From Flavobacteriales bacterium (lineage in GTDB: Bacteria; Bacteroidota; Bacteroidia; NS11-12g; UBA9320), in NCBI GenBank assembly GCA_020635395.1, contig JACJZV010000001.1:782675-846674 (forward strand): a stretch of 64,000 nt of DNA. Reading direction: 5' to 3'. The notes under the pieces were generated by a model. The model was not told where the DNA came from, made no database searches, and was given only the letters and a program-made list of their open reading frames with translations. Within the stretch, counting starts at the first letter, position 1; each line of letters starts with the position of its first letter. The position numbers were made by a program, and so were the translations under genes. This document shows, in pieces, positions 910-30,184 of the stretch.

Positions 910-914
910 TTGAC

Positions 915-3332: not shown

Positions 3333-3351
3333 ACGCTCAATTCTACTACAA

Positions 3352-10500: not shown

Positions 10501-13500
10501 TATTTATAGCCGAAAATAGGGTTGGGTCGCCATAATATGCTGCAGTTCCACCACCAACATTTGCAAAAATATTGTTGGTAATTTCGTTGCCGGTGTAGTT
10601 TGAATTAATTGATGTATATAGAGCTGCCCAAGCTGTTGATACGTAACTGCTGGTAAGAACAATAGTGTTGTTCGATAAAACTTGATTGTTTGATGAGTAA
10701 AAATCTACCCCATCTACAGAATTGCTTGAACTGCCAATTTGAACAAAGTTGTTTGCAATTAACCCTTTGTCGGTTGATGTTGCATCGCAGGCGTTAAAGT
10801 ACATGCCAATTCCATCACCTAATCCCGTAACCTTGTTTCCAATAATGCGTTGTGCACCATCGCTAAAATAACAATAAATTCCGTAGAGACTTGAGTATGA
10901 TGAGGTCGTAGAAATGGTATTTCTCAATACAGCAAGATCTTGAGTGTAGAAAGAGTAAATACCATAATAGTAAAAATCGGTAATGATGTTGTCTTTAATC
11001 ATCCAATTTTTTTGCAAAGAACTTGATGATCCACCATAACAATAAATGCCATAGCTACCATTTAATAATTCATTGTTGGAAATGGTTACGCTATCAGACA
11101 CGTTTGATACACCTGAGTTATCAAAAATTAGTGCATAGTTGCTGGAAGTCGATGATACAACAGGGCCAACAATTTTTGAATTTTGAACCGTAATGTTATT
11201 ATTCGTACCATTAAATACAACAATACTTCCGCGAGAAGTGCCTGTGGCCACCATATTGAAACTATCAAAGGTAATATGGTTAATGTCTTTAAATAATACG
11301 ATATAATTATCCGATGATGAACTGGACGAATAGGTAATGGTAGGCATTCCAGAACCAACAAACCGAATGGTGTTGACGGCTGAAGTACCCAAAATTTTTG
11401 TGCCGTCCAAATTGATGTTTTCATTGTAGGTGCCTGGTTGAACAGTAAACGTAATAGGTCCTGAAATTCCTGCACACTGAAGGGCATCCACCGCAGCTGT
11501 GAAGTTGGGGTAGGTTCCGGTTGAACCAATAGTGTAATTGCCTCCAGCCAACGGAACACCGAAACTAGAAGAATTTGAATCGTTAATGGTAATTACATCC
11601 GCAGAGCCATTTGGGTCGCTTGTCCAGGCAGTAAGTTGACTACATCCGGCTGATATAGACGCAGTGCCTGAGAAGGTCAACGTGTCTGATTGGCAACTTG
11701 CCAAAGAAATAGTAAATGTCTCGGTGGTAGTGCTGCCACCATCAACCGAAAAGTTTCCTTTAACACTTGTCAAAGTTGAAGATCCATAATTTCGAACCGC
11801 AATTTTTACCACCTGATTGCCAGCAGCAACTACGCCGTTAGGGCTTAAAATAGAAGTTACTCCTGCGTCTAAACTACCGTTTATTGTTTCATCAGCACCG
11901 GGGAAAGTAGTTGTTGTGCCACGTGAATCTCCATCAATATCGGTGGAAACAGAAGATAGTGCGGGCATTTTTACAAAACAAGGATCTACTAAATGAAAAT
12001 CAGTTGCAGATACAAAATTTGGCATTTGAAAAACAGAGTTCCCATCAAGGCTTGATGAGCTTACAAAGCCGGCTAAAGTGCTATTGAGGCTAATTCCATC
12101 ATAAAACATGTCTGAAGTTGAGTTGCCATAAAACACGTTGTAATCTGAGGTTAAATAAGATACGCCTGATACGTAGATTAAATATCCCTGTCCGGAGTTA
12201 ACAATAATGTTGTTTTTTAATTCAGTTCCAACATAGGTAGAACTGCTACAATAAATATACACTGTTGGGTAGGATGAAGAATTGTAGGAAGAGTTATCGA
12301 CAAAAGTGTTATGGTAAACATTTTGATAGCTACATCCGTATAAATAAAGGGCTCTTGCCGAATTGGATGCATTGTCTCCAACAACTACAATGTTGTTTGC
12401 AATTAAACCTGGTAAAGTGCTGGTGGCATCAGAATAAGAGATATACAAACCGTAGTTTTTTATTGTTATTTGGTTTCCAGTAATTTTTAGGTTTCCGTCA
12501 CCGTAAGATGAATAAATACCGTAGGTGCTGGTTGACGAACCAATGAATTTGTTGTTGTTTACAACCGAGTTATTATGATAATAGCCGTACAATCCAGCAT
12601 AATAGAAGTCTTTGATGGTGTTGCCTGTTATGGTCCAATTGTCTTGCAACGCAGTGGTTGATGACCCATACATATATATACCATATGAACCATACAAAAT
12701 TTCATTGTCTTTAATAAGCACGTTTGTAGATAGTGAACTGCCCGTTTCATCGTAAATTGTAGAGGAAGTAGCGGTTGATGTGCTTACAACAGGTCCCTCA
12801 ATTTTGCAGTTTTTGATGGTAATATTGCCGTTTGAGCCACCAAAATAGAAAGCTGGAGCGGATGTTCCGGTTTGGATAACGTTTATCCCGTCAAAAGCAA
12901 CATAGTTGGTGTTTTGCAACTTTATGGTTGCACCAGAGGCATTTTTCAAAACTGGCATCGTGCTGTTTGTTGGGTCGCTAACAAAGGTAATGGTGTTGCT
13001 TGAAGAGGAGCCTACAATAGCAGGAATAAAAACGTCTTCAGTATATGTGCCACTTCTTACTTTAAGAGTTACTGCACCCGAAATGCCCGCACAATTTAAA
13101 CCATCTATTGCTTCCGTAAAGTTTGCAAAATCTGGCGATGAACCACCAATAGTATATGTGCCGGACATTGCCACCCCAAAACTAGTTGAAGCACTATCGT
13201 TTGAGATTTTTGTGTCCGAAGCCCCACCGGGATTGCTTGACCACGCGGTCAAGGATTTACAACCAACGCTATGATTAAAAGTAGAGCTAAAAGTAACGGT
13301 ATCGTTGGCACAACTTGACAAGGTAGTGGACATGTTTTGATTAACAACCGACCCACCTGAGGGCAAATAACTAACAGTATAACCATTAACGGTGTTTAAA
13401 CCATAATTACGAACTACAACCTTTACAGTTTGTGTTCCTGAGCTAACGGTTCCGGAAGGTGTTAATATTTCGGCAACCCCTATATCGTTGTTTCCTTGAT

Positions 13501-15922
13501 AAACCTCATCACATCCTGGGTGAGTAACAGATGGGTTTCTGCTTGCTCCATCAATATCCGTTGTAACGGCCGATAGTGCAGGCACTCTGTCAAAACAAGC
13601 ATCACTCAAATGTAAGTCTGTACTACTAATAAAAGGAGGAAGTTTTTCGAAAGAATTTTGGTCATAACCCGATTTTGCACTTTGATAGGCGGCTACATTT
13701 GAATACGAAGCTCCCGCATAAACCACGTTGCTACTACCAACACTATAATAGATATTGTAATCTAAGGCGTTATAATAATTGGTGGTGCCACTGTAGTAGA
13801 GATACACCGCATATCCTCCGACGGTGTTAACAAATATATTATTCACTACATCATTTCCACTATATGTAGCAGATGAATAGCTAAAGTAACCCGCAACGTA
13901 AGTAGTTCCTGTTGTGGACGGAGTTGATGTCACCACGCAAGTATTGTGGTAAAACTTTTGATAACTGCTGCTAAGCGAATAAATAGCTCTTGCGGCATCA
14001 GTACCTGAATTTCCAACTCGAATACTATTGTTAATAAAATAGGCCGGTGCCACAGAAGAAGCGTCGCATGAACTATGATAAATGCCATATCCCCTATACA
14101 CGTCTATTTTATTTTCAGATATCATGTTTGCTCCATCAGAGTAAGCCAAGTATAGACCGTAGAGTGCAGAACTATAGGTGCTATTTGATGAAATAGTATT
14201 ATTTGAGACAGTAATGTCCTGAGTGCTATAGTTGTAGATACCATAGTAGTCAAAATCTGTACAGGTATTTCCTGTTATTTGCCAACCTTTCTGCAAGCTG
14301 GTTGTAGATATACCATAGTTGTAGATGCTTGCAGAACCATATAGAAGAACATTGTCTTTTATGATAATGTTGGTGTCCGTTGATGTTGAAGGTGAATAAA
14401 TCAGAGCTGCATAGTTGGAAGAAGAACTGGGTTTTTTCCCTTCAATGGTACAATTCTGAATCGTTATATCGCCACTGTTTTGGTCGAAAGAAACAACCCG
14501 ACAATAATACCCATCCAAACCCTTTAAGTGCAAATTGTTTAAAATATAGTGTGATGCATTATAAAAAAGTATTGTCCAATCATCAGTAGTACCCGTAGCA
14601 TCATACTCTATTATTGCTTTGCTGGTGGCTGATGGGTCGGTTTGAATGGTAATGGTGTTGGTGGCCGACTGCCCCGGCACATTTGTTATAGTATGTTGCC
14701 CTGTATAGGTGCCGGCTGCAAGATTTAGAACAACGGGGCCACAAAGCCCATTGGCCAATGCTGTCTTGGCCGCATCAATGGTTGCAAAATCACTGCTGGA
14801 TGTGCCAACGGTGTATGTTCCGCTCATGCCCGGTACAAAAGTTTTTTGCAACGTATCGTTCGCGGGTTTTCCATCCGAAGTGGAGTTCGGATTTTTTGTG
14901 TAAACAACAAAATTACTCGAACTACCGCTGTAGGTATAGGGTCCTAAATTGATGACAATAGAGCTATTTGGAGTCAATGTGCCGGTATGATTATAGGTGT
15001 TTTGTGAGGTGCCATTTACTGACCATTCCACATCAAAACTTGTCACATTGTTGTTTCCCTCGTTGGTTACTTCAATTTTTATACTATCTGTAGAATTACA
15101 AATTGCATCGCTTGGATTAACAAAAGAAGAAACAGCTACATCATTAGAAACCAAAAATTTCGGCTCAAAAATATGGTATTCGTTGTCGGATGCAGAACTA
15201 CCGCCACTACCATAAATAATATTTGGAGAGCCAGCCGATGAGTTGATTCCTGTGGTTACATCGACATAAGTGGAAGAGTTGAGCTGAACGCCTGCAGTTA
15301 GGCTTGGGGTGCCGTTCAGGTAATAGTTCTGATCAACGATGTAAATATTGTTGGTGCCTTCTTCCAAAACCACGGCCCAATAGGCATAAGACATGTTACC
15401 GATGGCATAAGAGAAGTTTTGAATCCACAACTGCCTGCTGCCAGTGCTGCCAAAAACAAAAGTATAAACATTGTCGCCTGTGCTTCTGGTAGCCACATTT
15501 TCCCAGAAATAGGCAATAGTGCTGTCGGGCAAATTACTGTTTGGTAAAGCCGAATTCGAGTTCAGAGAGCTGTTTACCTGAGTTCCAGCCACTGAGGTAC
15601 TAAACGTAAGCAAACCGTTTTGAGAAACACAAAAAGAGTCAACTGTGCCGCCATAAAACTTAAATGTAAACGGAATGGGAATAGCCAACGACCAATAATT
15701 GGTACTGGTGTAAGAACCTGTAGAACCGCCGGGGCCTTGATTGTAAGCCATAATAACTGTTCCACCAGTGGATGTAGCATCGGAACTAGTTCGCACGCCA
15801 CCGGGATTTCCCACGTTCTGGTTTGAGTTGGTTTGGGTGTAGATCCATTGTGCTTGAGCGTTTTGGTTGGTAAAAAGCAAAAACGCCACAAACACGACCA
15901 ATAAGTTGAAAAATTTCTTCAT
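4559..15922 (-). CDS. Giant (3787 aa) secreted multidomain adhesin-like T9SS cargo protein. It has an N-terminal domain, three right-handed beta-helix modules, three YQWQ Ig-like modules, about 17 PKD domains and a T9SS type-A CTD.
   Basis: A single uninterrupted 11.4-kb ORF with an ATG start. Signal peptide: MKKFFNLLVVFVAFLLFTNQNAQA. Three paralogous modules begin MSGTYTVG... / MSGTYTIGGSSPDFANF...C.GISG / LAGGNYTIGSTGTYPNF...CAGISG; each contains NN-I/V-x-N repeats and DxCF..MPALS.V.TDIDG.SR motifs. Three modules carry TICYN...YQWQ.S.DN..W..ISGAT. The recurring WNFGDGNTST..NPSHTY motif is the PKD signature. The C-terminus YPNPNNGKFVVN...GLYFIEIQNGSFVYKNTIIV is a T9SS tail. Confidence 0.9.
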   Translation of the reverse strand: MKKFFNLLVVFVAFLLFTNQNAQAQWIYTQTNSNQNVGNPGGVRTSSDATSTGGTVIMAYNQGPGGSTGSYTSTNYWSLAIPIPFTFKFYGGTVDSFCVSQNGLLTFSTSVAGTQVNSSLNSNSALPNSNLPDSTIAYFWENVATRSTGDNVYTFVFGSTGSRQLWIQNFSYAIGNMSYAYWAVVLEEGTNNIYIVDQNYYLNGTPSLTAGVQLNSSTYVDVTTGINSSAGSPNIIYGSGGSSASDNEYHIFEPKFLVSNDVAVSSFVNPSDAICNSTDSIKIEVTNEGNNNVTSFDVEWSVNGTSQNTYNHTGTLTPNSSIVINLGPYTYSGSSSNFVVYTKNPNSTSDGKPANDTLQKTFVPGMSGTYTVGTSSSDFATIDAAKTALANGLCGPVVLNLAAGTYTGQHTITNVPGQSATNTITIQTDPSATSKAIIEYDATGTTDDWTILFYNASHYILNNLHLKGLDGYYCRVVSFDQNSGDITIQNCTIEGKKPSSSSNYAALIYSPSTSTDTNIIIKDNVLLYGSASIYNYGISTTSLQKGWQITGNTCTDFDYYGIYNYSTQDITVSNNTISSNSTYSSALYGLYLAYSDGANMISENKIDVYRGYGIYHSSCDASSVAPAYFINNSIRVGNSGTDAARAIYSLSSSYQKFYHNTCVVTSTPSTTGTTYVAGYFSYSSATYSGNDVVNNIFVNTVGGYAVYLYYSGTTNYYNALDYNIYYSVGSSNVVYAGASYSNVAAYQSAKSGYDQNSFEKLPPFISSTDLHLSDACFDRVPALSAVTTDIDGASRNPSVTHPGCDEVYQGNNDIGVAEILTPSGTVSSGTQTVKVVVRNYGLNTVNGYTVSYLPSGGSVVNQNMSTTLSSCANDTVTFSSTFNHSVGCKSLTAWSSNPGGASDTKISNDSASTSFGVAMSGTYTIGGSSPDFANFTEAIDGLNCAGISGAVTLKVRSGTYTEDVFIPAIVGSSSSNTITFVSDPTNSTMPVLKNASGATIKLQNTNYVAFDGINVIQTGTSAPAFYFGGSNGNITIKNCKIEGPVVSTSTATSSTIYDETGSSLSTNVLIKDNEILYGSYGIYMYGSSTTALQDNWTITGNTIKDFYYAGLYGYYHNNSVVNNNKFIGSSTSTYGIYSSYGDGNLKITGNQITIKNYGLYISYSDATSTLPGLIANNIVVVGDNASNSARALYLYGCSYQNVYHNTFVDNSSYNSSSYPTVYIYCSSSTYVGTELKNNIIVNSGQGYLIYVSGVSYLTSDYNVFYGNSTSDMFYDGISLNSTLAGFVSSSSLDGNSVFQMPNFVSATDFHLVDPCFVKMPALSSVSTDIDGDSRGTTTTFPGADETINGSLDAGVTSILSPNGVVAAGNQVVKIAVRNYGSSTLTSVKGNFSVDGGSTTTETFTISLASCQSDTLTFSGTASISAGCSQLTAWTSDPNGSADVITINDSNSSSFGVPLAGGNYTIGSTGTYPNFTAAVDALQCAGISGPITFTVQPGTYNENINLDGTKILGTSAVNTIRFVGSGMPTITYSSSSSSDNYIVLFKDINHITFDSFNMVATGTSRGSIVVFNGTNNNITVQNSKIVGPVVSSTSSNYALIFDNSGVSNVSDSVTISNNELLNGSYGIYCYGGSSSSLQKNWMIKDNIITDFYYYGIYSFYTQDLAVLRNTISTTSSYSSLYGIYCYFSDGAQRIIGNKVTGLGDGIGMYFNACDATSTDKGLIANNFVQIGSSSNSVDGVDFYSSNNQVLSNNTIVLTSSYVSTAWAALYTSINSNYTGNEITNNIFANVGGGTAAYYGDPTLFSAINNNSYYTSGSTLISAGSSYSTLASYQSNYTTIEQNSISVNPDFNATNDYHINSLEHFEAGTTASVSDDIEQVTRRATPTIGAFELLPDVALISVASDTVCGSNQNAAPITVTFKNNSNLILSNIPLSIVVDGTTTYTETVTGTFAAGATYTQTLSTTVDLSGTTDNSITVTYTGDDVNSANSSAGIVVPYWPNPVSSFANADSCFGSAMSFSSTGTVSSGSIVSTYWMFGDATSGTGNNTNHTYASSGSYNVSISSTTNNGCKDTTARSINVLTALIAGSISGDQTICYNSMPSTFGNTTPASGSAGTYGYQWQSSADNAAWSDISGAMGATYSSGNLTTTTYFRRGVTTNVGCGPEYSASIKVTVRDELMAGTIGSDQTICYNTVPSSISESAVPTGGDGSWTLQWQLSSNGSTWSNISGATSNSYNPSALTATRYYRLRYTGGSSCGVVYSNTVTINVYNDLYAGLVGNPHSVCPNGTPNTLNQTSAATGGNGTYTYQWQESNDNATWSNISGATSASYNSTSSLTNAMFYRRNTISGAGCGTKPTNSVKVSIAPLPNVSFVATPHCFNDVMPITNNSSVSSGSITGYLWNFGDGNSSTAAVPSYTYASSGVKNIKLIATTNIGCKDSATGTVNVSNAPVPTFYAIYDCKDDSSRFKNTTSVNCGKINAFLWELGDGTTSTLEDPVHKYASSGTYTVKFKIFLPGGFKDSVTKTVTVLPKATSGFTANDVCFGDSVKFVNSSTNAYSYSWSFGDNTTSTQENPTHFYRAAQTYNVTLISADGNGCNDTTTKSVTVKVRPFAYFSVDNRCVNTATPFVNGSLYAHNYVWNFGDGNTSTSSATNVSHAYGASGNYTASLYAYNNNGCKDTFTAAVESYSNPVSSFSISDMCKGSSFTATNSSTSAISYTWNMGDGTTFSSAAPTYNYANAGTYTVSLAVYSINGCGDTSTNSVVVYDNPVANFQTTNSCLGSTTNFTNNTSGGSGTLSYSWNFGDGNTSTQANPTHTYTAAGTYTVSLTATGTGSCAGTVSKTVTIYDNPTAAITVSDVCIGTTSNFVGTSTGASNYHWNFGDGNTSTSQSPSHTYAAAGSYNVMFVAQNSNGCADTANVMHNVNAMPTAAFTANTACLGSATVFTNSSSVGSGTLTYTWSFGDGSSSSVSNPSHTYASAGNYTASLTATANGCSSTISKNVVVNDKPTTDFSVSNNCLGVVTTFTNLSGGASSYSWNFGNGSTSTSVNPTYTYASAGTYTVSLTGIGAGGCNSVVSKTVTIYSNPTADFSTANVCVGNTATFSNNSSSGSYYWDFNDGAASTATNPSHAYTNAGTYNVTLTVTNSNGCIASTGKSIVVYDAPIAMFAGISGCSGSNLTFSNTSSGATTYTWNFGDGGTSTSANPSHTYSAAGNYVVSLTAKNANGCSNTYQQTVIISGTPTANFTANNACLGSAVTFTNTSVGGSSNWNFGDGTSSGQFSPMHSYAAVGNYTVNLTVTSAQGCTSSTSKMVSVNPNPVASFTATALCTGPTATFTDNSTISSGSIASSNFEYGDGNSGTSNTHTYATAGTYGQVRLTVTSDKGCVSSTLRSVTVADAPSVSISANDVCLGNSITFGTTTNSGVKSWSFGDGNTSGALTPTHIYSSAGTYNVSVTVENKVGCTAMAATTVRVFALPVANFSTTGGCQNTDISFTNTSNGAAVSYWNFGDGGTSTLQNPTHNYANSGSKVVSLSIASTEGCTNEITKTINVLQSPMASFIVGNVCEGDVTQFTNSSRNATSASWSFGDGNTATSNNATHAYATQGTYRVILIASNGTCSDTSDRNVTINPLPNSGFTFKTAGRDVNFTPNIAGATYNWNFGDGATSTHQNPSHHYNVNNQSFNVCLKVVDNLGCASTSCNQVKISLLGVDKIENGIQIYPNPNNGKFVVNVGQKNGDISFNIYDTKGALIKSSDDINTSTFEVELGETAEGLYFIEIQNGSFVYKNTIIVTR
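4950..8740 (-). repeat. Tandem array of about 17 PKD-domain-encoding repeat units with a period of about 235 bp, inside the giant adhesin gene.
   Basis: The plus-strand string CATCGCCAAAATTCCAA (antisense of W-N-F-G-D-G) and close variants recur at about 4951, 5173, 5405, 5641, 6113, 6343, 6583, 6813, 7043, 7283, 7515, 7763, 7993, 8231, 8471 and 8713. Confidence 0.85.
10370..14830 (-). repeat. Three diverged tandem units of about 1.6 kb that encode the beta-helix modules of the giant adhesin. Boundaries are approximate.
   Basis: At protein level the module starts lie at about aa 366, 919 and 1458, which map to about 14827, 13168 and 11551. Each has the same order of landmarks: G-x-YT-I/V-G, C-x-GISG, beta-helix repeats, then DxCF...TDIDGxSR. 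Confidence 0.55.
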
Positions 15923-16185: not shown

Positions 16186-16965
16186 TCACTTCGGATTTAT
16201 TTTCGGGGCAATTTTCCAAAAGAGCGTGGGCAGGTATTTGTGAATGTAATAGAGTATCAACTCTTTTTTACCTATCAAAACTTCACGCTTGTTTCGTGCA
16301 ATGGCTTTGCCAATTTTGGCGGCACACACCTCTACCGACATCCCATTTCGCTGCCCATCATCCATCTGTCCTGTCGGTTTTCCATCAGGGTTTAAAGCAT
16401 TTTTGGAGATATTCGTTCTTATTCTTCCCGGACAAACTACCGTGGTGCGGATGTTCTGATTTATATATTCCAATCCCAGAGTTTCGAAATATCCAACAAC
16501 CGCATGCTTACTTGCCGAATAGCTGCTGCGAAGCGGAAACCCAAACTTGCCGGAAATGCTACTGACAACTGAAATGTTGCCACCACCGGTTTCTATCATC
16601 CAGGGCAGCACTTTTTTTGTTAATGCAACGGTGCCAAAGTAGTTTATTTCAAAAATTCTTCTGTCAACGGTTTCGGGAGTGTCTGTTATTTTACTCCGTT
16701 GGCTAATGCCACCGTTATTTATTAATATGTCAATTTTTGAAACGTTTTTTTTGGCCATTTCAACCGCATTTTCAATGGTTTTTGAATCAGCCAAATCTAA
16801 CGGAATAATGTATATCTCGCCGTTGGTTTGGCAAGATTTTGCAACAACTTCTAAGGCAGATTCGTTGCGGGCAGAAAGAATTAGGTTAAATCCTTTTTTT
16901 GAATAATAATGGGCTAAGGCTTCGCCAATGCCCGAGCTGGCACCCGTTATCCAAACGGTTTTCAT
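16186..16965 (-). CDS. SDR-family short-chain dehydrogenase/reductase.
   Basis: TGASSGIGEALA is the Rossmann motif and YSASKHAV is the catalytic YxxxK. The ORF track begins at TTG 16968; the ATG at 16965 is the likelier start. The stop abuts the upstream gene with a 3-nt gap, so the two form an operon. Confidence 0.85.
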   Translation of the reverse strand: MKTVWITGASSGIGEALAHYYSKKGFNLILSARNESALEVVAKSCQTNGEIYIIPLDLADSKTIENAVEMAKKNVSKIDILINNGGISQRSKITDTPETVDRRIFEINYFGTVALTKKVLPWMIETGGGNISVVSSISGKFGFPLRSSYSASKHAVVGYFETLGLEYINQNIRTTVVCPGRIRTNISKNALNPDGKPTGQMDDGQRNGMSVEVCAAKIGKAIARNKREVLIGKKELILYYIHKYLPTLFWKIAPKINPK

Positions 16966-16968
16966 CAA

Positions 16969-17898
16969 TTATTTAAGTGTGAATTTTGTGCTGCCGAGCA
17001 ACACACCTTCGCAATACACATTGGCCGTATATTCTCCGGCGGTCATATCGTTTGATTTTTCCCAAAAGAAAACCACCTTCTCATTAGAGTTGGTAAAATT
17101 GAATTTCTCCTTTTTGGTGTAAAGCGAGCCGTGGTCGTCCAACGTAAACGTTCCTGAACCCTTTGCCTGATTGTTCAGCGTTGTTTTTTCGGGTGATAAA
17201 ATTTGCAAATACAACGTTTTGCTTTCTTTTATGGCCACCGCATTGTTGTCTATCACAGCTTCTACCATAATTCTATCGGTTTTTGAAAACCTATCGGTTT
17301 CTTTTTCAGTGCCACTGCCTTTTACTTTTATGCCATAGGCTCTAAGCGATTTTGTTTTAAGGCGTTTTGCAATATCTAATTGGGCGTTAATCTTGTCTCT
17401 TTCAGCTACCACAGCTTCTGTCTTTTTGGTTTGTTCCACCAATTCGTTCTTTTTGGCATACAACGAATCTCTGAAAAATTCTTTTTCCTTTTTCAGTTGT
17501 TCTATTTGGGCAATGTAGCCATCACGTTCGGTGGTAAGCTCCTGAATTTGTTTTTTAAATTTTTCGATGTCTGCCTTGCTCACATTTCCGCTGTTGATGG
17601 CTTTTTTCAACTCAGCCACTTTTGCGTTCAGTTTCATTTCTTGTTCACGAATCACACTGTCGAGTTTTTGGTTTTCGCCTTTATACTCCACCAATTCGAG
17701 ATTCAATCTATCCAACTCTTCATTAAGTTGTGCTTTTTCGGCAGTCAAATCATCCACTTGCTCCTGTTTTTCTTCCACCACTTTCTTTTTAGAAAGCAGT
17801 TGATAGACCAGCAAACCATTAACCGCAAGCAATGCAAGCACAACAAGCAACAAATACAATCGGCTACGTTTATCTTTTTCTTCGTTTTTAAATGTCAT
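16969..17898 (-). CDS. Membrane-anchored coiled-coil protein of unknown function.
   Basis: The N-terminal TM helix is LYLLLVVLALLAVNGLLVY. It is followed by about 170 aa of K/E/Q-rich heptad-like sequence and a C-terminal beta-rich domain. The ORF-track start is TTG 17922; the first ATG is at 17898. Confidence 0.55.
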   Translation of the reverse strand: MTFKNEEKDKRSRLYLLLVVLALLAVNGLLVYQLLSKKKVVEEKQEQVDDLTAEKAQLNEELDRLNLELVEYKGENQKLDSVIREQEMKLNAKVAELKKAINSGNVSKADIEKFKKQIQELTTERDGYIAQIEQLKKEKEFFRDSLYAKKNELVEQTKKTEAVVAERDKINAQLDIAKRLKTKSLRAYGIKVKGSGTEKETDRFSKTDRIMVEAVIDNNAVAIKESKTLYLQILSPEKTTLNNQAKGSGTFTLDDHGSLYTKKEKFNFTNSNEKVVFFWEKSNDMTAGEYTANVYCEGVLLGSTKFTLK

Positions 17899-18003
17899 AC
17901 TACCGAAACAAATTTCTGACAAAATTAGTATATTTTTGGGTTGATAAGAAAAATAGCTTTAACAGATGCTTTGTTTATGGGAAGATTAGTGTATTTGGGG
18001 TAT

Positions 18004-18073
18004 AACCGCCGTGCAGAAGCTTGCCGCTGCATCCCTTTTTTAAAATCACTGCTCAATTTGTTTGGTTTTTAAG
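18004..18073. repeat. Direct repeat copy A (~70 bp), flanking the Hint cassette on its downstream side.
   Basis: AACCGCCGTGCAGAAGCTTGCCGCTGCATCCCTTTTTTAAAATCACTGCTCAATTTGTTTGGTTTTTAAG. It matches 19565..19634 with about 5 mismatches. It contains the imperfect hairpin GCAG-N10-CTGC followed by a T6 run. Confidence 0.8.
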
Positions 18074-18171
18074 ATAGAATGCAGGAATAAACCTTAATAA
18101 AATTACATGGATAAGGAATTATTTTTCTTCCGCTCGAAACCATGCCTAAAAGAAACCGATAGCCAACTTTT

Positions 18172-18591
18172 TTAACTCCCCGTAATCAACACATAGACAG
18201 GTATCTTTTCTTCTCCAAATTTTTCTTCTACTGCAAATGCAAAACCTTCAAAAAAATGGTTGTCTCTATCACCCAAAATGGGTGAGCCTATTTTGTTATG
18301 CGTTTGATATAGTAAATCTAATGCCGTAAAATACTTGCCATTAGCAGCCTCCAATGTTTCTATATGTTCTCGCACTTCTTCGTATTCTTCAAGCGGCAAC
18401 ACTATGGCGGCTATCATTACCTTTGGGCTGTTTATGGTGTTTTCATCCCATTTAATTTTGGGATAAGTACCCTTGTAGCCAATGCTTTTGTGGTAGGTTC
18501 TAAGGGCTTCTTTAAATGCTTCGGCAGTTTCGTAGGGTGCTTCTATATAGTTCCAATAGAGGTCTCTAAAAAGTTCTTTTGTATAGTCCAT
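18172..18591 (-). CDS. Small (139 aa) cytoplasmic protein of unknown function; candidate immunity protein for the upstream Hint-domain toxin.
   Basis: ATG start. It lies 18 nt downstream of the Hint gene on the same strand and inside the repeat-bounded cassette. There is no signal peptide and no recognisable family. The immunity call is inferred from position only. Confidence 0.4.
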   Translation of the reverse strand: MDYTKELFRDLYWNYIEAPYETAEAFKEALRTYHKSIGYKGTYPKIKWDENTINSPKVMIAAIVLPLEEYEEVREHIETLEAANGKYFTALDLLYQTHNKIGSPILGDRDNHFFEGFAFAVEEKFGEEKIPVYVLITGS

Positions 18592-18609
18592 ATTTGCTTT
18601 TTTAGTTTT

Positions 18610-19497
18610 CTAAACAAAATATTTGCATGGGTTAAAATTGGTATTCCTTTTCCATCGATTAAATGCATACTCGGTCATGGCATTGCTACGGTTTTTTAAA
18701 ATACCCAGACCCTTATGCTCCTTTGCACCACCAAAATAGGTGATTAAATATTGCTCGATTACCCGGGCTTCAAAAAATTTCATTTTTATACCATCTATAC
18801 CGGATATAAATACATCTTTAATGCTTATTGAACTTATTTCTGTCGTCCTTTTCCATAAGTTGTATTCTTTGATACCATCCAAGGCACGTTTGCCTTCTTC
18901 AACATGCTGAACGTGCCTTAAATCTAACCGCTGCGTTGTAATGCCGACATAGAGGTCGGCTTTGGAAACTTTGTCTTTTAGGGTGTAGAATTCAAACACG
19001 TACTCCGTTTGGTCGGCATAGCTGAAAGCCGTTTGGTTGTGTGTAAGAATGCCTGAGTTGGCTACTAAGTAGTTGTGGTTTTGAGCCACTTCTATGTTGT
19101 GGGTGGGTACTTGTTGTTCTATTTTTTGGATAGATGCAATGTGTATATGTTTGTTGTTTTGGGCATCGAACAAATAATCGCCCAACGACAGTTGGCTGGC
19201 GGCTTTCCAACGCTTGGCAAAGGCTTCAAAAAACCGGTGGTTGCCCGTTACATTTAGTTCTGTGCCGCAAGTGGTGGTTATTTTGATGTATTGCAAGGCG
19301 GTGTTGGTATATGTTTGCAATATTAGTTGCAATTCGGTAGTTTTGGTTTTTTCGTTATAGCTCCACACGTTTTCGCCTGTCTTTAAATCTTCAATAGGTT
19401 TTAGCCCTTGTTCGGTATGCACCATTGTACCAGCCAAAAAACATGGAATTTTAGGCGGTTTTTCAAAAAGGTCTGTAAATCTATAATCTTTCCACAT
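18610..19497 (-). CDS. Hint (Hedgehog/intein)-domain protein with a C-terminal domain of about 140 aa of unknown type. This is the architecture of a pre-toxin Hint plus toxin tip from a polymorphic toxin, but it lacks any N-terminal delivery or repeat region.
   Basis: ATG start (MWKDY...). Hint block A is CFLAGTMV at aa 27, block B is VTGNHRFF, and the C-terminal block is HNYLVANSGILTHN. A further C-terminal domain of about 140 aa has no recognised motif. There is no signal peptide and no RHS/YD/filamentous repeats. Confidence 0.7.
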   Translation of the reverse strand: MWKDYRFTDLFEKPPKIPCFLAGTMVHTEQGLKPIEDLKTGENVWSYNEKTKTTELQLILQTYTNTALQYIKITTTCGTELNVTGNHRFFEAFAKRWKAASQLSLGDYLFDAQNNKHIHIASIQKIEQQVPTHNIEVAQNHNYLVANSGILTHNQTAFSYADQTEYVFEFYTLKDKVSKADLYVGITTQRLDLRHVQHVEEGKRALDGIKEYNLWKRTTEISSISIKDVFISGIDGIKMKFFEARVIEQYLITYFGGAKEHKGLGILKNRSNAMTEYAFNRWKRNTNFNPCKYFV

Positions 19498-19564
19498 TTG
19501 GGTCGCAAAGTTAAGTTTATTTCTTCCCCTCAGACTCCTTTAATGGGTGGGCGGATTCAAACCC

Positions 19565-19634
19565 AACCGCCATTCAGAAGCTTGCCGCTGCATCCCTTTT
19601 TTAAAAGCACTACTCAATTTGTTTGGTTTTTAAG
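19565..19634. repeat. Direct repeat copy B (~70 bp), flanking the Hint cassette on its upstream side.
   Basis: AACCGCCATTCAGAAGCTTGCCGCTGCATCCCTTTTTTAAAAGCACTACTCAATTTGTTTGGTTTTTAAG. It lies 68 nt upstream of the Hint gene ATG. In copy A the first residues (AACCGCC) close a 5-bp GGCGG/CCGCC hairpin. Confidence 0.8.
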
Positions 19635-19735
19635 CTAAAATGATGCAAAATACGTATTGAGAATCTGGATTAAAGCAGGGTGCATTTTTCATCCTTAAAC
19701 CTTAATTCCTTCAACCTTAAACATTCAAAAAAATC

Positions 19736-19777: not shown

Positions 19778-22501
19778 ATGTTAGCACACTCTTATCTTAG
19801 CAATGCCGACGTCGATTCGATAGACGAAATGTATAAGCAGTATCAGGCAAACCCGCAAAACGTGGAGTTTGGTTGGCAAAAATTCTTTGAAGGTTTTGAT
19901 TTGGCCTACGACAAAACCGGAATCAGCGGCCAAGTGGTGTCGGAAGATATGCTAAAAGAAATCAATGTGCTTCGACTGATAAACGATGGCTACCGCACCC
20001 GAGGGCATTTGTTTACCAAAACCAATCCGGTTCGCGATAGGCGAAAATATGAACCTACGCTTGATATTAACAATTTTGGTTTGGAGCAGTCGGATATGGA
20101 TAAGACCTTTAATGCAGGCATCGAATTGGGCATTGGGCCGGCCAAGTTGAAAGATATTATCGAGCATTTGGAACAAACCTATTGTCAAAGCATTGGGGTT
20201 GAATATATGTATATGCAGCACCCCGAGCGGAAAGAATGGCTCAAAACCCGCATGGAAAGCCGGAAAAATCAACCAAACCTGTCTATCAACCAAAAAAGAG
20301 AAGTGCTGAATAAGTTGAATCAAGCTGTGGTTTTTGAGAATTTTCTGCATACCAAATACGTTGGGCAAAAACGGTTTTCGCTTGAAGGTTTGGAAACGTT
20401 GATACCTGCATTAAACACCATCATTGAGCATGGCTCAACATTGGGTGTTGAAGAGTTTGTGATTGGTATGGCACATAGAGGCAGGCTGAACGTGTTGGCC
20501 AACATTATGCATAAAAACTATGAAGAAATTTTTAGAGAATTTGAAGGAAGAGCTTATGCCGATGCCATTTTTGAGGGCGATGTAAAATACCACATGGGAT
20601 ATTCTTCCGAAATAAAATCAAATGAAGGTAAAGATATTCGGCTCACCTTAACACCAAATCCCTCACACTTGGAGGCTGTAAACCCTGTGGTAGAAGGCGT
20701 TTCAAGGGCAAAGATAGACAGAGAACACAATAGAAATTTTGATAAATTAACCCCAATACTCATTCATGGTGATGCGGCTGTTAGTGGTCAGGGCATTGTG
20801 TATGAAGTCATTCAAATGGCTGGGTTGGAAGGTTACAACAATGGGGGAACCATACATTTGGTTACTAACAATCAAATAGGTTTTACCACCAACTACACCG
20901 ATGGCCGAACATCGATATACTGCACCGATGTGGCCAAAACCACCAAGTGTCCTGTTTTTCATGTAAATGGAGACGACGCTGAAGCCATTGTGTATGTAAT
21001 GCAATTGGCCACAGAGTATCGGCAAAAATTTCATACTGATGTTTTTATCGATTTGTTAGGTTATCGAAAATACGGTCATAATGAAGGGGATGAACCGAGA
21101 TTTACACAGCCTAAGTTGTATAAAGAAATTGCCAAGCACAAAAATCCACGTGAAATTTATGCGGAAAAATTGGCAAATACCGGTAGTGTGGAAGCCGATT
21201 TGGCCGAACAAATGGAGAAAGAATTTAAACAACTTTTGCAAGAAAAGTTAGACAGTGTTCGGTCGGCCAATGGGCAAGAAACTACCAATAATTCGCCAGC
21301 AAACACATGGGCACACATAAGAAAGGCCGAGCAAAAAGACTTTGAGCAATCGCCCGTAACGGCCATTGACAAAACCAAATTTCAAAAACTGGCCAAATCA
21401 ATTACGCAAATTCCGGATGGATTTAAGGCTTTTAAAAAGGTTGAAAAACTATTTGCCGACCGTGCCGACATGATTAAAAACAACAGCTTCGACTGGGCAA
21501 TGGGCGAATTAATGGCCTACGCCAGTCTGTTGGACGAAGGTTTTCCGGTAAGAATGAGCGGACAGGATTGCGAGCGAGGCACCTTTAGCCATCGGCACGC
21601 CATAATAAAAGAAGAAGATTCGGAAAACGAATATTGCCCGTTGGCACAAATTGGAGGGCAAAAAACGTCGTTTGAAATCTACAACTCATTGCTTTCAGAA
21701 TTTGCCGTTTTGGGGTTTGAGTATGGCTATGCCATGACCAATCCCAATGGATTAACAATATGGGAAGCCCAGTTTGGCGATTTTGCCAATGGGGCTCAGG
21801 TTATTATTGATCAATTTATTGCCAGCGGCGAAACAAAATGGAAACGCTTTAACGGTTTAGTCATGTTGTTGCCACACGGTCATGAGGGTCAAGGGCCTGA
21901 GCACTCCTCGGCTCGTCCTGAGCGGTATTTGCAACTGTGTGCCACACTCAATATGCAAGTAATAAATGCCACAACACCAGCCAATTTATTTCATGCCTTG
22001 AGGCGACAACTGAAGCGAGACATTCGGGTGCCTTTAGTAGTGCTTACCCCTAAAAGTTTACTGAGACATCCACTTTGTGTAAGTTCAATCGAAGATTTTA
22101 CAAATGGAGCATTTCAAGAGATAATTGATGATGCAAAAGCCGATGCAAAAAAGGTAAAGCGGGTGGTGCTTTGCACTGGTAAAATCTATTATGATTTACT
22201 GAAAAAGCAGGAGGAAGATAACATAGAAAACGTTGCTGTTGTTCGGGTAGAACAATTGTATCCGTTGGCCGAAAACCAATTGGCCGATTTGCAAAAAAAA
22301 TACAGGAATGCAGAGTGGAAATGGGTGCAGGAAGAACCTAAAAATCAGGGTGCATGGATGCATTTGCTGCGGTATGATTTGCCTTTTGCTTTGGGTGTAA
22401 TTAGCCGCCGCTCAAGCTCGTCTCCGGCTACTGGCTACGCCAAGGTGCACAATCAAGAGCAAGAGCAGATAATTTCCGAAGCATTTTCTATCGGGAAATA
22501 A
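19778..22501 (+). CDS. sucA: 2-oxoglutarate dehydrogenase E1 component.
   Basis: 907 aa. The N-terminus SYLSNADVDSIDEMYKQYQANP...WQKFFEGF follows the standard SucA N-terminal pattern, and transketolase-like and TPP-binding regions follow. No sucB lies downstream. Confidence 0.9.
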   Translation: MLAHSYLSNADVDSIDEMYKQYQANPQNVEFGWQKFFEGFDLAYDKTGISGQVVSEDMLKEINVLRLINDGYRTRGHLFTKTNPVRDRRKYEPTLDINNFGLEQSDMDKTFNAGIELGIGPAKLKDIIEHLEQTYCQSIGVEYMYMQHPERKEWLKTRMESRKNQPNLSINQKREVLNKLNQAVVFENFLHTKYVGQKRFSLEGLETLIPALNTIIEHGSTLGVEEFVIGMAHRGRLNVLANIMHKNYEEIFREFEGRAYADAIFEGDVKYHMGYSSEIKSNEGKDIRLTLTPNPSHLEAVNPVVEGVSRAKIDREHNRNFDKLTPILIHGDAAVSGQGIVYEVIQMAGLEGYNNGGTIHLVTNNQIGFTTNYTDGRTSIYCTDVAKTTKCPVFHVNGDDAEAIVYVMQLATEYRQKFHTDVFIDLLGYRKYGHNEGDEPRFTQPKLYKEIAKHKNPREIYAEKLANTGSVEADLAEQMEKEFKQLLQEKLDSVRSANGQETTNNSPANTWAHIRKAEQKDFEQSPVTAIDKTKFQKLAKSITQIPDGFKAFKKVEKLFADRADMIKNNSFDWAMGELMAYASLLDEGFPVRMSGQDCERGTFSHRHAIIKEEDSENEYCPLAQIGGQKTSFEIYNSLLSEFAVLGFEYGYAMTNPNGLTIWEAQFGDFANGAQVIIDQFIASGETKWKRFNGLVMLLPHGHEGQGPEHSSARPERYLQLCATLNMQVINATTPANLFHALRRQLKRDIRVPLVVLTPKSLLRHPLCVSSIEDFTNGAFQEIIDDAKADAKKVKRVVLCTGKIYYDLLKKQEEDNIENVAVVRVEQLYPLAENQLADLQKKYRNAEWKWVQEEPKNQGAWMHLLRYDLPFALGVISRRSSSSPATGYAKVHNQEQEQIISEAFSIGK

Positions 22502-22754: not shown

Positions 22755-23642
22755 ATGTCAGGAGGTTTTTATAGTAATTCTACATTTTTAGCCTTAGTTA
22801 TTTTGGCGGTTGTGTTGCTCATCGTAGCGGCATTGATGGTGTATGTTGTTAAACACATTACATCCATTTTAAACCAAAAATACCCTACTCAGGCGGAGCC
22901 AACTTTTTACGAGAGTAAAATAAAGCCCACAACAGATAAGTGGAACCCAACTATTGTATCGTTGGTGGTTATTGGCATTTTAGCCATTGTTTTAGGTGGG
23001 TGGGGATTCGATTATACTGCTTATAAAGTGGGTAATCAGCAAGGTTATGCACCTGACCAACCAATCAATTTTCCGCACGACAAACATGCCGGTGCAATGA
23101 ATATTGATTGTCAGTATTGCCATATAGGTGCGTCAAAAAGTAAACATTCCACCATTCCATCAAGCAATATTTGTATGAACTGCCACAAGGGGGCTCAGTT
23201 GAGAGAAAAATACAACGGACAAGTATCTCCTGAGTTGGCTAAACTGTATAAGTATGTAGGTTTTGACCCAGAAGCAGGCTCTTACGATCCGAATGCAAAA
23301 GGAGTTGGCCCGATAAAATGGGTAAGGGTTCACAACCTTCCTGACTTGGCATATTTCAACCACTCACAACACGTATCTGCTGCAAAATTGGCTCCAGATG
23401 GTAGCACCGAGAGCAAAGATATTTGTAATGTATGTCATGGGCCTGTACACGAAATGGCCAAATTGGAGCAATTTAGCACATTGCAAATGGGCTGGTGTGT
23501 AAACTGTCACAGACAAAGAGGTATTGATGTTGAAAACAACAAATACTACGAGGATGTGCATAAAGAAATGAAAAAGAACAACAAGCATTATGTTACCGTT
23601 GCAGAAAACGGAGGTTTGGAATGTTCAAAATGCCATTATTAA
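22755..23642 (+). CDS. actA: Alternative complex III subunit ActA, a membrane-anchored pentahaem cytochrome c.
   Basis: An N-terminal TM anchor is followed by five CxxCH motifs: CQYCH, CMNCH, CNVCH, CVNCH, CSKCH. It is the first gene of a six-gene co-directional cluster with 3-40 nt gaps. Confidence 0.85.
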   Translation: MSGGFYSNSTFLALVILAVVLLIVAALMVYVVKHITSILNQKYPTQAEPTFYESKIKPTTDKWNPTIVSLVVIGILAIVLGGWGFDYTAYKVGNQQGYAPDQPINFPHDKHAGAMNIDCQYCHIGASKSKHSTIPSSNICMNCHKGAQLREKYNGQVSPELAKLYKYVGFDPEAGSYDPNAKGVGPIKWVRVHNLPDLAYFNHSQHVSAAKLAPDGSTESKDICNVCHGPVHEMAKLEQFSTLQMGWCVNCHRQRGIDVENNKYYEDVHKEMKKNNKHYVTVAENGGLECSKCHY

Positions 23643-23682
23643 TCGATATTCAATTTAAGAAACTCAAAGATTACAACATATA

Positions 23683-26600
23683 ATGAGTAATTTGGAAAAT
23701 AAATACTGGAAGGGAATTGAAGAACTGGAAAAACCTGCTCAATATGCAGGAAGAACCGATGAGTTCTCAGACAAGCTTCCGATGGAAGAAATTTTTGGTG
23801 ATTCGGATGAAATAACTTCAAACCGCCGAGATTTCTTAAAGTTTTTTGGTTTTAGCGTTAGTGCAGTAGCATTGGCCGCCTGCAATAGGACACCGGTAAA
23901 GTATGCCATGCCTTATATCGAAAAACCAGCGAATGTAACTCCGGGTCTCCCTTTGTATTACGCAACTTCATGTGGTGCGTTCAACGAAGGTTTTCCTGTT
24001 GTGGCTAAAGTGCGAGAAGGTAGGCCAATAAAATTGGATGGTAACGAAAAAAGCATCCTCAGTCAGGGAGGGTTAAATGCTATTGGCCAAGCCAGTATTT
24101 TGTCGTTGTATGACATCAACCGTTTGCAAAACCCAAAAATTGGCGGAAAAACAGAGAAAGATTGGGCAAACGTAGATAAAAAAGTAGCAGAAATATTAAA
24201 GCAAGCGGCAGGAAAAGGCGTGGCAGTGGTTTCAAGAACCGTTACCAGCCCAATTCTTAAAGATGCTATTGATAAATTTAAGACAGCTCACAATGCTACA
24301 CACATTGTGTATGACCCAATTTCGTATTCAGGTATTTTAAATGCCAATAAAGAATCGTTTGGTGTAGCTACCGTTCCAAATTATAAATTCGACAAAGCAG
24401 AGCTAATTGTTAGTTTCGGTGCCGACTTTTTAGGTACATGGGTTTCTCCTGTTAGGTTTTCGTCTGATTATGCTAAAAACAGAGTTCCTTCGCCAGAAAA
24501 TGCCAATATGAGCAGACACTACCAAATTGAAGCAAACATGAGTTTGACAGGAACCAATGCCGATTATCGGTTTGCAATTCCGGCCTCAAAACATGGAGCC
24601 TATTTGGTAAGTCTATATAATATGGTTGCCTCAAAAGTTGGGGGTTCTTCCGTTTCTGGTGCTCAAAATGAGCTTGCCGGAAACATGTTGAGCAAAATAG
24701 CCGAAGAATTGGTGGCAGCAAAAGGAAAGGCATTGGTTGTTTGTGGAAGCAACAACAAAGCCGACCAGATTATTACCAATGCAATAAACACTATGTTAGA
24801 TAGCTATGGAAACACCATAGACATCAACACTTCATACAATGTATCTGCCTTTAATGAGGCGGAATTTGACAATTTTGCAAAACAGGCTGGAAGCCTTGGA
24901 GCTGTAATATTTTTAAACTGTAATCCGGTTTATTCTTATGCCAACGGCAAAGATTTGGCCGATTCGTTGAAAAAAACCAATGTAATTTGCACATCTATTG
25001 TGGCGGATGAAACCTCAATGAATGCCACAGTGAATGCTCCGGATAACCACTTCTTGGAGTCGTGGGATATTTATGAGCCAATGAGCGGACATTATCTAAC
25101 TTCTCAACCAACCATTACCAAAGTATTCAACACCAGAAGTGCTGCTGAGTCTTTGAGAACTTGGGCTGGAGAGACGTTGGAAATGGGAGAGGATCAAGTT
25201 TCTCGCAGTTGGGTTGTAAATTATTTGGAGAGCAACTTGGGGGTAAATGCTGAACAAGCTCTGCATGACGGGGTGGTGGAAAAAGCTGCTTCAAATGGAG
25301 CAGGCTCATTCTCAGGTTCTGTTTCTGATGCCGCTGCAGCTATAGCTTCTGCAAAAAAAGGTGATGGTTTAGAACTTTCACTCTATCAAAAAGTAGGAAT
25401 AGGCGATGGCACAATGGCCATGAACCCATGGTGTCATGAAATGCCGGACCCGGTTACAAAAGTTACTTACGATAACTACGTGACGATTTCAAGAAGTGAT
25501 GCAGAAGCCAATAATTGGGAACAAGGCGATTGGATGAAGGTAACTTCCTCAAATGGTACGGTTGACAAATTGCCTTTACTTATTCAACCTGGGCAAGCGG
25601 TAGGAACCATCGGTATAGCTTTGGGCTATGGCCGCACACCTGAAATATTAGACGAAAACAAAAATGATTTGGTTGACCTTGGTAAAAATGTTTACCCATT
25701 GGTTCAAACAGATAATGGCACCTATTCGTATGTGGTGAGTGGCGTGAAACTTGAAAAAGTAGGTTCGGGTTATGAATTTGCCCAAACTCAAACGCATCAC
25801 ATGGTAGAAGGTCGTGATATAATGAGAGAAACAACACTTTCTGAATATCAAAAAGAAAAAGACGCAGGAAACAAACCTCAGGCTAAAACACAGCACTTGG
25901 TATCTCTTTGGGAAGAATTTGACTATTCAAAGGGACATCATTGGGCAATGGCTGTTGATATGAATGCCTGTACGGGTTGTGGCTCTTGTATTGTAAGCTG
26001 CAGCTTGGAAAACAACGTGCCAATTGTTGGCCGTGATGAGGTTCGTAGAAGGAGAGAAATGCATTGGATTCGTATCGACAGATACTATGCATTTGAGGTT
26101 CAGGAAGAAACAAAAGTATCAGTAAAATTTGCCGGAGAAAGAGACTTTAAAAAAGGCGATTATTCTTCGAAAGAAAAGGAACTAAACGCATTGGATGAAA
26201 TTGCCAAAAAAGGGGGCAAAAACGACTATTCGCATTACAACAATGTTACGGTAGTTCATCAACCAATGATGTGTCAGCATTGCGACCATGCACCTTGCGA
26301 GACTGTTTGTCCGGTATTGGCAACTACGCATAGCTCGGAAGGTTTGAATCAAATGACCTATAACCGTTGCATCGGAACGAAATACTGTGGAAACAACTGC
26401 CCATACAAAGTGCGTCGTTTCAACTGGTTTAAATACAACGATAACAGCAAATTCAATTATCATTTCAATAACGAACTTGGAAGAATGGTTCTTAACCCTG
26501 ATGTAACGGTGCGTTCAAGAGGGGTTATGGAAAAATGTAGTTTCTGCGTTCAAAACATTCAAATGGCAAAACTGAAAGCCAAGATTGAAAACAGAAAATT

Positions 26601-26808: not shown

Positions 26809-26827
26809 TTTATAAAAAGAAACAAAA

Positions 26828-28174: not shown

Positions 28175-28195
28175 TATTATTTTAAATCCTGAAGG

Positions 28196-29095: not shown

Positions 29096-29098
29096 AAA

Positions 29099-30178: not shown

Positions 30179-30184
30179 GTACAA

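Follow-up and report, generated by a model that had tools for sequence, protein, structure and literature searches.

What is a Hint-domain gene that stands with a single small gene between sucA and a coiled-coil gene in a Flavobacteriales genome, bracketed by two direct repeats, and how did it come to lie there? We addressed this question in a 64,000-nucleotide stretch of contig JACJZV010000001.1 (positions 782,675 to 846,674; assembly GCA_020635395.1), referred to below as the window, in which all coordinates are given (Table 1). An initial annotation, made by a model from the sequence, had reported a 295-aa Hint open reading frame (ORF) followed by a 139-aa ORF 18 nt downstream on the same strand, and both were found on the ORF map with that gap. 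The 1.33-kb pair is likely to be an orphan toxin-immunity (TI) cassette of a polymorphic-toxin system (PT-HINT, Tox-URI1 nuclease and immunity gene) that was truncated at its 5' end and inserted at the sucA/coiled-coil site. As such it would be a fairly ordinary orphan instance of known polymorphic-toxin systems, unusual only in its isolation and in its 74-bp flanking repeats.

The N-terminal part of the 295-aa protein matched PT-HINT (PF07591; E = 9.2e-14; 52.3 bits, where the cut-off is 27.7), with the Hint and intein models, including the N- and C-terminal splicing models of inteins, matching at lower scores. The closest PDB sequence was the bacterial intein-like (BIL) domain 2lwy (E = 2e-12), and the Hint part of an AlphaFold2 (AF2) model formed a beta-fold with a predicted local distance difference test (pLDDT) score of 81-92. 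The Hint motifs listed in the initial annotation were all present, although CFLAGTMV starts at aa 19 and not at aa 27; VTGNHRFF lies at aa 83-90 and ILTHN at aa 150-154. Residues C19, T84, H87, H153 and N154 were invariant in 67 of 67 relatives with a complete Hint domain. The +1 position after N154 is Q155 in the window and A, D, Q, K, E or N in relatives, and none of the 41 sequences aligning there had C, S or T. With Q155 at +1 and no extein, the domain does not look like a true intein. Because it has neither a +1 nucleophile nor an extein to ligate, it should cleave rather than splice, forming the N-terminal thioester and cyclising the terminal Asn without ligation. Cutting is also the role proposed for pre-toxin HINT domains (PMC3482391).

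The remaining 141 aa had been described as a C-terminal domain without a recognised motif and with an unknown toxin fold, but they carry the motif set of GIY-YIG/URI, and a fold can now be predicted. A word-indexed search of 5.8 billion proteins returned only five homologues. A profile made of the five C-terminal domains and run against 1.84 billion cluster representatives retrieved 117 representatives at E ≤ 1e-3 (36 of these at E ≤ 1e-10). The carrier proteins are 53-2477 aa long, and in 74 of the 79 full-coverage matches the domain ends five or fewer residues from the protein C-terminus. A Pfam scan of the 117 found PT-HINT in 74, GIY-YIG (PF01541) in 51 (best E = 1e-13), eCIS_core in five, DUF4280 (PAAR-like) in three and NUMOD1 in one. 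Two of six close relatives matched PF01541; one representative, P0056, scored above the GIY-YIG gathering threshold (23.8 vs 22.6 bits) and matched the profile of the window's clade at E = 1.3e-17. Eight residues (Y171, Y183, G185, T187, R194, H198, E248 and N269) were at least 90% conserved across the 117, while Y171, Y183, G185, R194, H198, E243, E248, N269 and N289-P-C291 were invariant in a 28-sequence domain alignment. The motif spacing in the window domain is Y-12-Y-11-R-4-H, and the same residues are spaced 11/10/4 in I-TevI. This conserved set of Y, YxG, R, H, E and N equals the signature of Tox-URI1 ("Y, YxG, R, [RK]xxE, N"), a URI/GIY-YIG toxin clade that Zhang, Aravind et al. (2012, PMC3482391) record in Bacteroidetes and list as HINT-processed, which supports the GIY-YIG/URI assignment. 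Through homology to family members and shared motifs, a nuclease of the GIY-YIG/URI type, of the Tox-URI1 kind, is thus a well-supported prediction for the domain. At its extreme C-terminus, the toxin family also has an invariant Asn-Pro-Cys, after which two or three aromatic or hydrophobic residues complete the chain (NPCKYFV in the window; 18613-18627, aa 289-293). This end lies outside the canonical GIY-YIG core, and in the window's clade the terminal tail NPC[KR][FY] is invariant.

We further compared the small downstream gene with its counterparts. A homologue of 139-144 aa lies 0-18 nt 3' of every toxin homologue whose contig was read, that is, at loci L001 (three tandem pairs), L002/L003, L004, L005 (two pairs) and L017/L018. 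The small protein is 68% identical where the toxin tip is 57% identical and 29-30% identical where the tip is 36-39% identical, so its divergence tracks that of the tip, which is the behaviour expected of a cognate immunity protein. The 139-aa protein matched no Pfam model and no known family or fold, and it is none of the immunity families listed for Tox-URI1 (Imm14, 26, 44 and 51). PADLOC gave no defence-family match for the toxin protein and a marginal HamA1 match for the 139-aa protein (E = 0.019, 12.3 bits). We infer that the small gene encodes an immunity protein, which would define a small, previously unclassified immunity family as the partner of this toxin clade.

The genomic contexts of the homologues are textbook polymorphic-toxin arrays. 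At L002, a SUKH gene and the gene for a Tox-MPTase4 protein of 837 aa precede the pair, and ADPrib_exo_Tox, SMI1 and Imm35 genes follow it; at L004, L017 and L018 a PoNi immunity gene precedes it. L001 carries three tandem Hint-toxin/immunity pairs (4692-10650), followed by a Transposase_mut gene, in which the Hint-coding DNA is 86-95% identical and the tips differ. Recombination at the Hint region would give a mosaic of this kind. The third L001 tip is of another subtype, closer to P0005. Upstream of these pairs, two L001 genes (403 and 520 aa; 1082-3873) jointly correspond to the N-terminal body of P0078, which makes up 748 of its 970 aa. This body has no Pfam match and is a distant relative of the one in the L002 Tox-MPTase4 protein (512-3025). 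These similarities indicate that the toxin set has an unannotated N-terminal body in common, which is probably the delivery part of these toxins. In L004, the cassettes (1-1443 and 1357-2922) have a common short N-terminal leader (MQKWINDLILEIKK..LGLVDEA) that recurs after each immunity gene, and in L005 the leader MGNWGINIEDSDTYLDVEA does so at 927-992 and 2788-2853; different tips may thus share one leader or adaptor-binding segment. Repeated intergenic segments also separate homologue cassettes, such as D1, D2 and D4 of L002 at ~1.8-kb spacing. Siting in or near arrays 3' of a full-length toxin was found at L001, L002, L004, L005 and L017 and not in the window. Overall, the conserved pairing, the toxin arrays and the presence of the tip on many bodies bear out the proposal of the initial annotation that Hint, a tip of ~140 aa and a small gene form a toxin-immunity arrangement.

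The N-terminus of the protein shows how the cassette differs from its longer relatives. A junction, (K)MW[KD]EFxYxxL..PPxKKPCFLAGT, precedes the Hint Cys in 85 Hint-bearing relatives. It is internal in long proteins, e.g., P0054 (827 aa), P0068 (809 aa), P0074 (756 aa) and P0075 (677 aa), and its "MW" is the exact start of six cluster representatives, the window's protein among them. Upstream of the window ATG the frame continues: the 11 codons 5' of it read RGRNKLNFATQ, similar to the GNKLKLAEK that precedes MW in P0047, P0063 and P0002, and tblastn alignments of P0002, P0054, P0056 and P0058 extend past the ATG to 19518-19530. Because the junction is internal in long toxins and a remnant of the upstream frame persists, the sequence identifies the toxin gene as a copy of a longer toxin gene that lost its 5' part and retained a Met in frame. 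Only 18 aa lie before the Hint Cys, and they contain no N-terminal trafficking or secretion domain; as stated earlier for this protein, there is no signal peptide or delivery region, that is, neither a hydrophobic signal-like stretch nor a long N-terminal domain. Searches of the window (tblastn and ORF scans) found no other Hint, toxin body, full-length toxin, immunity homologue or delivery system. Likewise, the scan of 30 large window ORFs, which covered neither the 3787-aa ORF nor the short ORFs, gave no recombinase or transposase (E ≤ 1e-6) and no component of a type VI secretion system (T6SS) or extracellular contractile injection system (eCIS); these 30 are housekeeping genes, type IX secretion system (T9SS) cargo and one Eco47II-type restriction-modification pair. 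The pair is called an orphan because it stands alone within the window, and the earlier description of an orphan tip cassette without a delivery region agrees with a start at a motif that is internal in 400-970-aa toxins, with the upstream remnant and with the lack of a full-length toxin in the window.

We next asked whether the site is occupied in relatives. At five loci (L010-L014; contigs of four distinct relatives), the order is sucA, ~210 nt, coiled-coil gene, gene for a short-chain dehydrogenase/reductase (SDR), glyoxalase gene and a Sortilin/T9SS protein gene, with no cassette; coiled-coil homologues on long contigs share ~47% amino acid identity. Blastn of the window against the syntenic relatives was collinear at 64-72% nucleotide identity with two window-specific gaps, one at the 3787-aa gene and one at the cassette. 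The promoter box close to sucA (CTATCTTTGCC) is likewise conserved, including beside the sucA-proximal repeat, R2. A search for related loci with an empty site returned only L006, which starts 14 nt before the gene and is uninformative. Insertion of the cassette at the sucA/coiled-coil site is thus supported by empty sites in relatives. The intergenic region measures 1855 nt in the window and 208-215 nt in relatives; it would be 294 nt minus one repeat unit (1561 nt) and 220 nt minus both repeats and the cassette. As 220 nt is nearer to the relatives' lengths, this is a weak hint that both repeat copies arrived with the insert. The initial annotation had suggested that the cassette was inserted, or is exchangeable, by recombination between duplicated copies of a native intergenic element: the insertion agrees with the empty sites, the lengths slightly disfavour a native origin of the repeat, and exchange between the repeats is hypothetical.

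The two direct repeats (R1 and R2) bracket the pair with sharp edges, as first noted for repeats of ~70 bp. Their core is 74 nt, 68 of 74 positions are identical and the six mismatches are scattered along the repeat. A repeat finder reported a longer span (18004-18092 and 19565-19653; 88% over 89 nt), but the sequence beyond the core edges was no more alike than shuffled sequence and the extended homology was dropped as not significant. An exact 32-mer shared by the copies occurs twice in the window vs 0 times expected (100 shuffles). R2 ends 67 nt upstream of the Hint ATG, and R1 ends 81 nt (TTG) or 105 nt (ATG) upstream of the coiled-coil start, so that each copy does lie upstream of a minus-strand gene. 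On both sides, independent short-read Logan contigs end precisely within the 32-mer common to the copies, as expected of a de Bruijn graph at a genuine two-copy repeat. One such contig of 1589 nt (L016, equal to window 18016-19604), seen in three samples, contains one repeat unit with the same 28 nt at both ends; it is equally expected from a graph break at the repeat or from a circular 1561-bp form. A variant contig (L015) is 99% identical, and it says nothing on selection because six of its seven differences cluster at the contig end.

The repeat itself gave no sign of a known kind of element. Its 21-mer had no match in the GTDB representative genomes, a set that evidently lacks this metagenome-assembled genome (MAG). 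A repeat 20-mer had three matches in JGI metagenome contigs, all by chance and with unrelated flanks; IMG/VR held no copy and the window no third one, and blastn of the 1.86-kb intergenic region against the PLSDB plasmids found nothing similar. With only two copies in 64 kb and none in these collections, the repeat is not, as far as searched, a widespread element of the repetitive extragenic palindromic (REP) type; a generic REP-like repeat in dozens of loci, raised at the outset as an objection, was not seen in the window, the GTDB representatives, the JGI contigs or IMG/VR. RNA folding z-scores of the repeat ranged from -0.55 to +1.8, with no structure signal and no attC-like hairpin, promoter and terminator scans were not above shuffles and Rfam (E ≤ 10) gave no relevant match to the repeat region; a structured RNA or attC hairpin at the repeat was accordingly rejected. 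A separate candidate was a tRNA/att site, since a stretch beside R2 (GGTTTGAATCCGCCCACCCA / GGTTGGGTTTGAATCCGCCCACCCA; 19540-19565, minus strand) resembles a tRNA T-arm and acceptor 3' end. It was rejected, as ARAGORN found no tRNA in the window, Rfam had no relevant match and the stems did not pair by hand.

Together, these observations suggest how such a cassette might work. In full-length relatives, an N-terminal body of 400-2000 aa would bring the protein to a delivery route, after which Hint would cut the polypeptide through Asn154 cyclisation and thioester hydrolysis at Cys19 and release the nuclease. The released nuclease would damage nucleic acid in the recipient cell, and the 139-aa protein would bind and block it in the producer. 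The window cassette, having lost the 5' body except for ~11 recognisable codons, would most likely not be exported on its own. Its probable roles are immunity against neighbours firing this toxin and service as a spare 3' tip, which recombination within the conserved junction and the Hint-coding sequence could move onto a full-length toxin gene located elsewhere; an intact toxin and immunity pair may also help the cassette to persist by an addiction-like effect. A hypothetical protein gains a predicted fold and a likely activity, as a GIY-YIG nuclease released by a Hint autoprotease, and the locus offers a clean example of an orphan TI pair that has sharply bounded 74-bp direct repeats on either side and lies between conserved housekeeping genes. 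Should the repeats prove to be recombination sites, the locus would provide a simple model for cassette movement between genomes; otherwise it is one more instance of a well-described system.

Several observations weigh against an orphan TI cassette as described here. The window's own C-terminal domain had no direct match to Pfam GIY-YIG, even at E ≤ 10, and its assignment is for this reason transitive, via family members. Alignment with hhalign placed the GIY..YIG..R..H block on I-TevI at 39% probability over 36 columns with an approximate I-TevI query, the AF2 model of aa 156-295, built on a five-sequence alignment, stayed below pLDDT 50, and sequence profile searches of the PDB found no GIY-YIG structure and only noise, e.g., phospholipase C and PRC1. 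Position and co-variation are the whole basis for predicting the 139-aa protein as an immunity protein. The short form that starts at MW may be a working architecture of its own and no truncation, because six independent representatives share exactly this start and one of them, P0049, begins 31 nt past the gene before it. Even the closest relatives with conserved synteny are remote (~47% amino acid and ~70% nucleotide identity), and the empty site for this reason neither dates nor localises the insertion. Foreign origin by composition was also considered and dropped, as the GC content of the cassette (0.38-0.40 vs 0.395 in the window) equals that of the genome and its GC content at third codon positions (GC3) is likewise genome-like.

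The same short start lends itself to a different interpretation, namely that the Hint-nuclease and its partner form an intracellular module of the toxin-antitoxin or abortive-infection kind, in which triggered Hint cleavage would free the nuclease in the producer, and are not the leftover of an exported toxin. Six cluster representatives starting at the same Met, the P0049 start with no room for an upstream body, the intactness of both ORFs and of all catalytic residues, and the position of the pair alone among housekeeping genes would suit such a module. Nevertheless, PADLOC had no family for the toxin and only a marginal HamA1 match for the small protein, homologues lie in arrays with classical secreted-toxin and immunity families, the same domain tips proteins of up to 2477 aa, some with eCIS_core or DUF4280 heads, and the remnant of a longer frame persists 5' of the window ATG; we regard this interpretation as distinctly unlikely. 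GIY-YIG is also a classic fold of homing endonucleases, and the protein could in principle be a free-standing enzyme of this type or a decayed intein or BIL element, with the repeats as a by-product of break-driven insertion. The match of the intein splicing models and the one relative in 117 that carries the DNA-binding module NUMOD1 point this way. Against it, the catalytic domain ends the protein with no DNA-binding extension, such enzymes are not characterised by a conserved partner gene that co-varies with them, and homing does not normally create 74-bp duplications; an intein origin is further disfavoured by PT-HINT scoring above the intein models, by a Hint domain that is not embedded in a host protein and by a +1 residue that is Q here and never C, S or T in relatives. 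An origin of this type is therefore highly improbable.

The repeats raise two more explanations. Repeat and cassette (1561 bp) might form a small mobile element that passes through a circle by site-specific recombination at the 74-bp repeat with a recombinase encoded elsewhere, in the manner of integrons or rAID. The direct repeats with sharp edges, the empty site in relatives, the homologue arrays with repeated intergenic segments (D1, D2 and D4 of L002) and the rAID-1 arrays of Bacteroidales with integron-like intergenic repeats (bioRxiv 10.1101/471110) are in keeping with this, and L016 is also what a circle would give. However, L016 is equally predicted by the chromosomal arrangement with a graph break at the 32-mer, no tyrosine or serine recombinase or transposase was among the 30 large ORFs scanned, neither the window nor GTDB representatives, JGI contigs or IMG/VR held a further copy of the repeat, PLSDB had nothing similar to the intergenic region around it, the repeat has no fold signal of the attC kind, and the copies differ at six scattered positions out of 74. 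Movement of this kind is unlikely. We see the same small chance that the 1561-bp unit is a minimal mobile cassette, circularised at the repeat by an outside recombinase, that serves an integron/rAID-like trade in TI pairs among environmental Flavobacteriales, the recurrent MW-start proteins being the transported functional form and not dead fragments. Conversely, the repeat could be an ordinary regulatory or REP-like intergenic element that brackets an old resident cassette by coincidence: each copy lies upstream of a minus-strand gene, GC and GC3 of the cassette match the genome and the relatives are too distant for dating. Yet there are only two copies in 64 kb and none elsewhere in the collections searched, and 92% identity over 74 non-coding nt with abrupt edges argues for duplication rather than convergent regulation. 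Reading the minus strand inside the repeat also revealed no Bacteroidetes-type promoter motif (TAnnTTTG), and neither a structure nor a terminator signal was found for that strand; coincidental bracketing is accordingly very unlikely.

Considered as an orphan TI cassette, the locus can be placed among described systems. It resembles the HINT and Tox-URI1 TI cassettes (PMC3482391) in that its C-terminal URI/GIY-YIG domain bears the Y, YxG, R, E, N signature and follows HINT immediately, the immunity gene is directly downstream, homologues form arrays and the tip is common to many N-terminal bodies. Unlike these, its immunity protein falls outside Imm14, 26, 44, 51 and Pfam, it stands alone among housekeeping genes instead of following a full-length toxin gene, 74-bp direct repeats lie on either side of it and its clade has the invariant NPC[KR][FY] tail. 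The orphan modules of Rhs and contact-dependent growth inhibition (CDI) systems likewise combine a 5'-truncated toxin gene, a stretch of conserved region before the variable tip and a cognate immunity gene. Such orphan modules are believed to recombine with the main gene and become its new tip. In the window, by contrast, the constant region is the junction and Hint rather than an Rhs core or CdiA pre-toxin (VENN/PxxxxDPxGL) motif, and no main gene is nearby in the 64 kb. BIL domains and mini-inteins (PDB 2lwy) share the Hint fold, catalytic Cys, TxxH and terminal HN, whereas the window Hint has no +1 nucleophile or extein and scores best with PT-HINT. The rAID-1 systems of Bacteroidales have an adjacent XerD-like recombinase and arrays of immunity genes with integron-like intergenic repeats (bioRxiv 10.1101/471110); they share acquired toxin-defence genes with repeated intergenic sequences in Bacteroidota, whereas the window has one toxin and immunity pair, two repeat copies and no recombinase among the 30 large ORFs. 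Finally, in short PT-HINT-toxin proteins of Bacteroidetes such as PT-HINT-BaCT (Jana et al. 2020, PMC7073777), a DNase tip follows PT-HINT directly, and forms that have large N-terminal domains occur as well, but the window tip is GIY-YIG and not a (D/E)xK BaCT domain.

Table 1. Features of the cassette and its immediate flanks, in window coordinates.
Feature	Position	Strand	Basis or remark
Toxin ORF, 295 aa	18610-19497	minus	ORF map
Pre-Hint junction motif MWKDYRFTDLFEKPPKIP, aa 1-18, here the N-terminus	19444-19497	minus	alignment of relatives
Pre-toxin Hint autoprotease domain, aa 19-154	19036-19443	minus	PF07591, 2lwy, AF2
C-terminal toxin domain, aa 155-295 (141 aa), predicted GIY-YIG/URI type, Tox-URI1 kind	18613-19035	minus	family profile
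In-frame remnant of a longer upstream frame, RSLRGRNKLNFATQ	19498-19539	minus	stop at 19540-19542, 14 codons upstream
Predicted immunity protein, 139 aa, unclassified family	18172-18591	minus	ORF map
Direct repeat R1, 74-nt core	18004-18077		between immunity gene 3' end and coiled-coil start
Direct repeat R2, 74-nt core	19565-19638		between Hint gene start and sucA
DUF8428/DUF8429 coiled-coil gene, native flank	16969-17898 (ATG) or 16969-17922 (TTG start)	minus	Pfam
SDR gene, 3' of the coiled-coil gene	16186-16968	minus	
sucA (2-oxoglutarate dehydrogenase E1), native flank	19778-22501	plus	
Locus tags of the cassette region			H6607_03435-03445 (Flavobacteriales MAG)

The same gene order of the region is implied by two NCBI MAG accession series from two assemblies (proteins MCB9261403-405, on the 1.47-Mb contig, and MEZ4845385-387). 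The sucA gene was identified by 70-72% nucleotide identity to relatives' genes with PF16078, PF00676, PF02779 and PF16870. For the coiled-coil protein, an exact look-up matched the 317-aa version with the TTG start and not the 309-aa version. Between its SDR and glyoxalase genes, the window encodes a PKD-rich protein of 3787 aa (4559-15922, minus strand), and the translation suggests that its C-terminal end is of the T9SS type. Because the SDR and glyoxalase genes are adjacent in all syntenic relatives, this giant gene represents another insertion specific to the lineage, just 2 kb away from the cassette.

Elsewhere in the window, the restriction-modification pair is of type II (51307-53291) and comprises an Eco47II-type endonuclease (52527-53291, minus strand) and an adjacent C-5 cytosine methyltransferase (51307-52551, plus strand) that bears a MerR-type helix-turn-helix. 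An alternative complex III-like operon lies 3' of sucA (22755-31582, plus strand). Pfam identified an NrfD-like ActC (26828-28174), ActD (28196-29095) and a cytochrome c/OmpA-domain protein (29099-30178), and a multihaem cytochrome (22755-23642) and a molybdopterin/FeS-type subunit (23683-26808) were recognised by reading the translations only.

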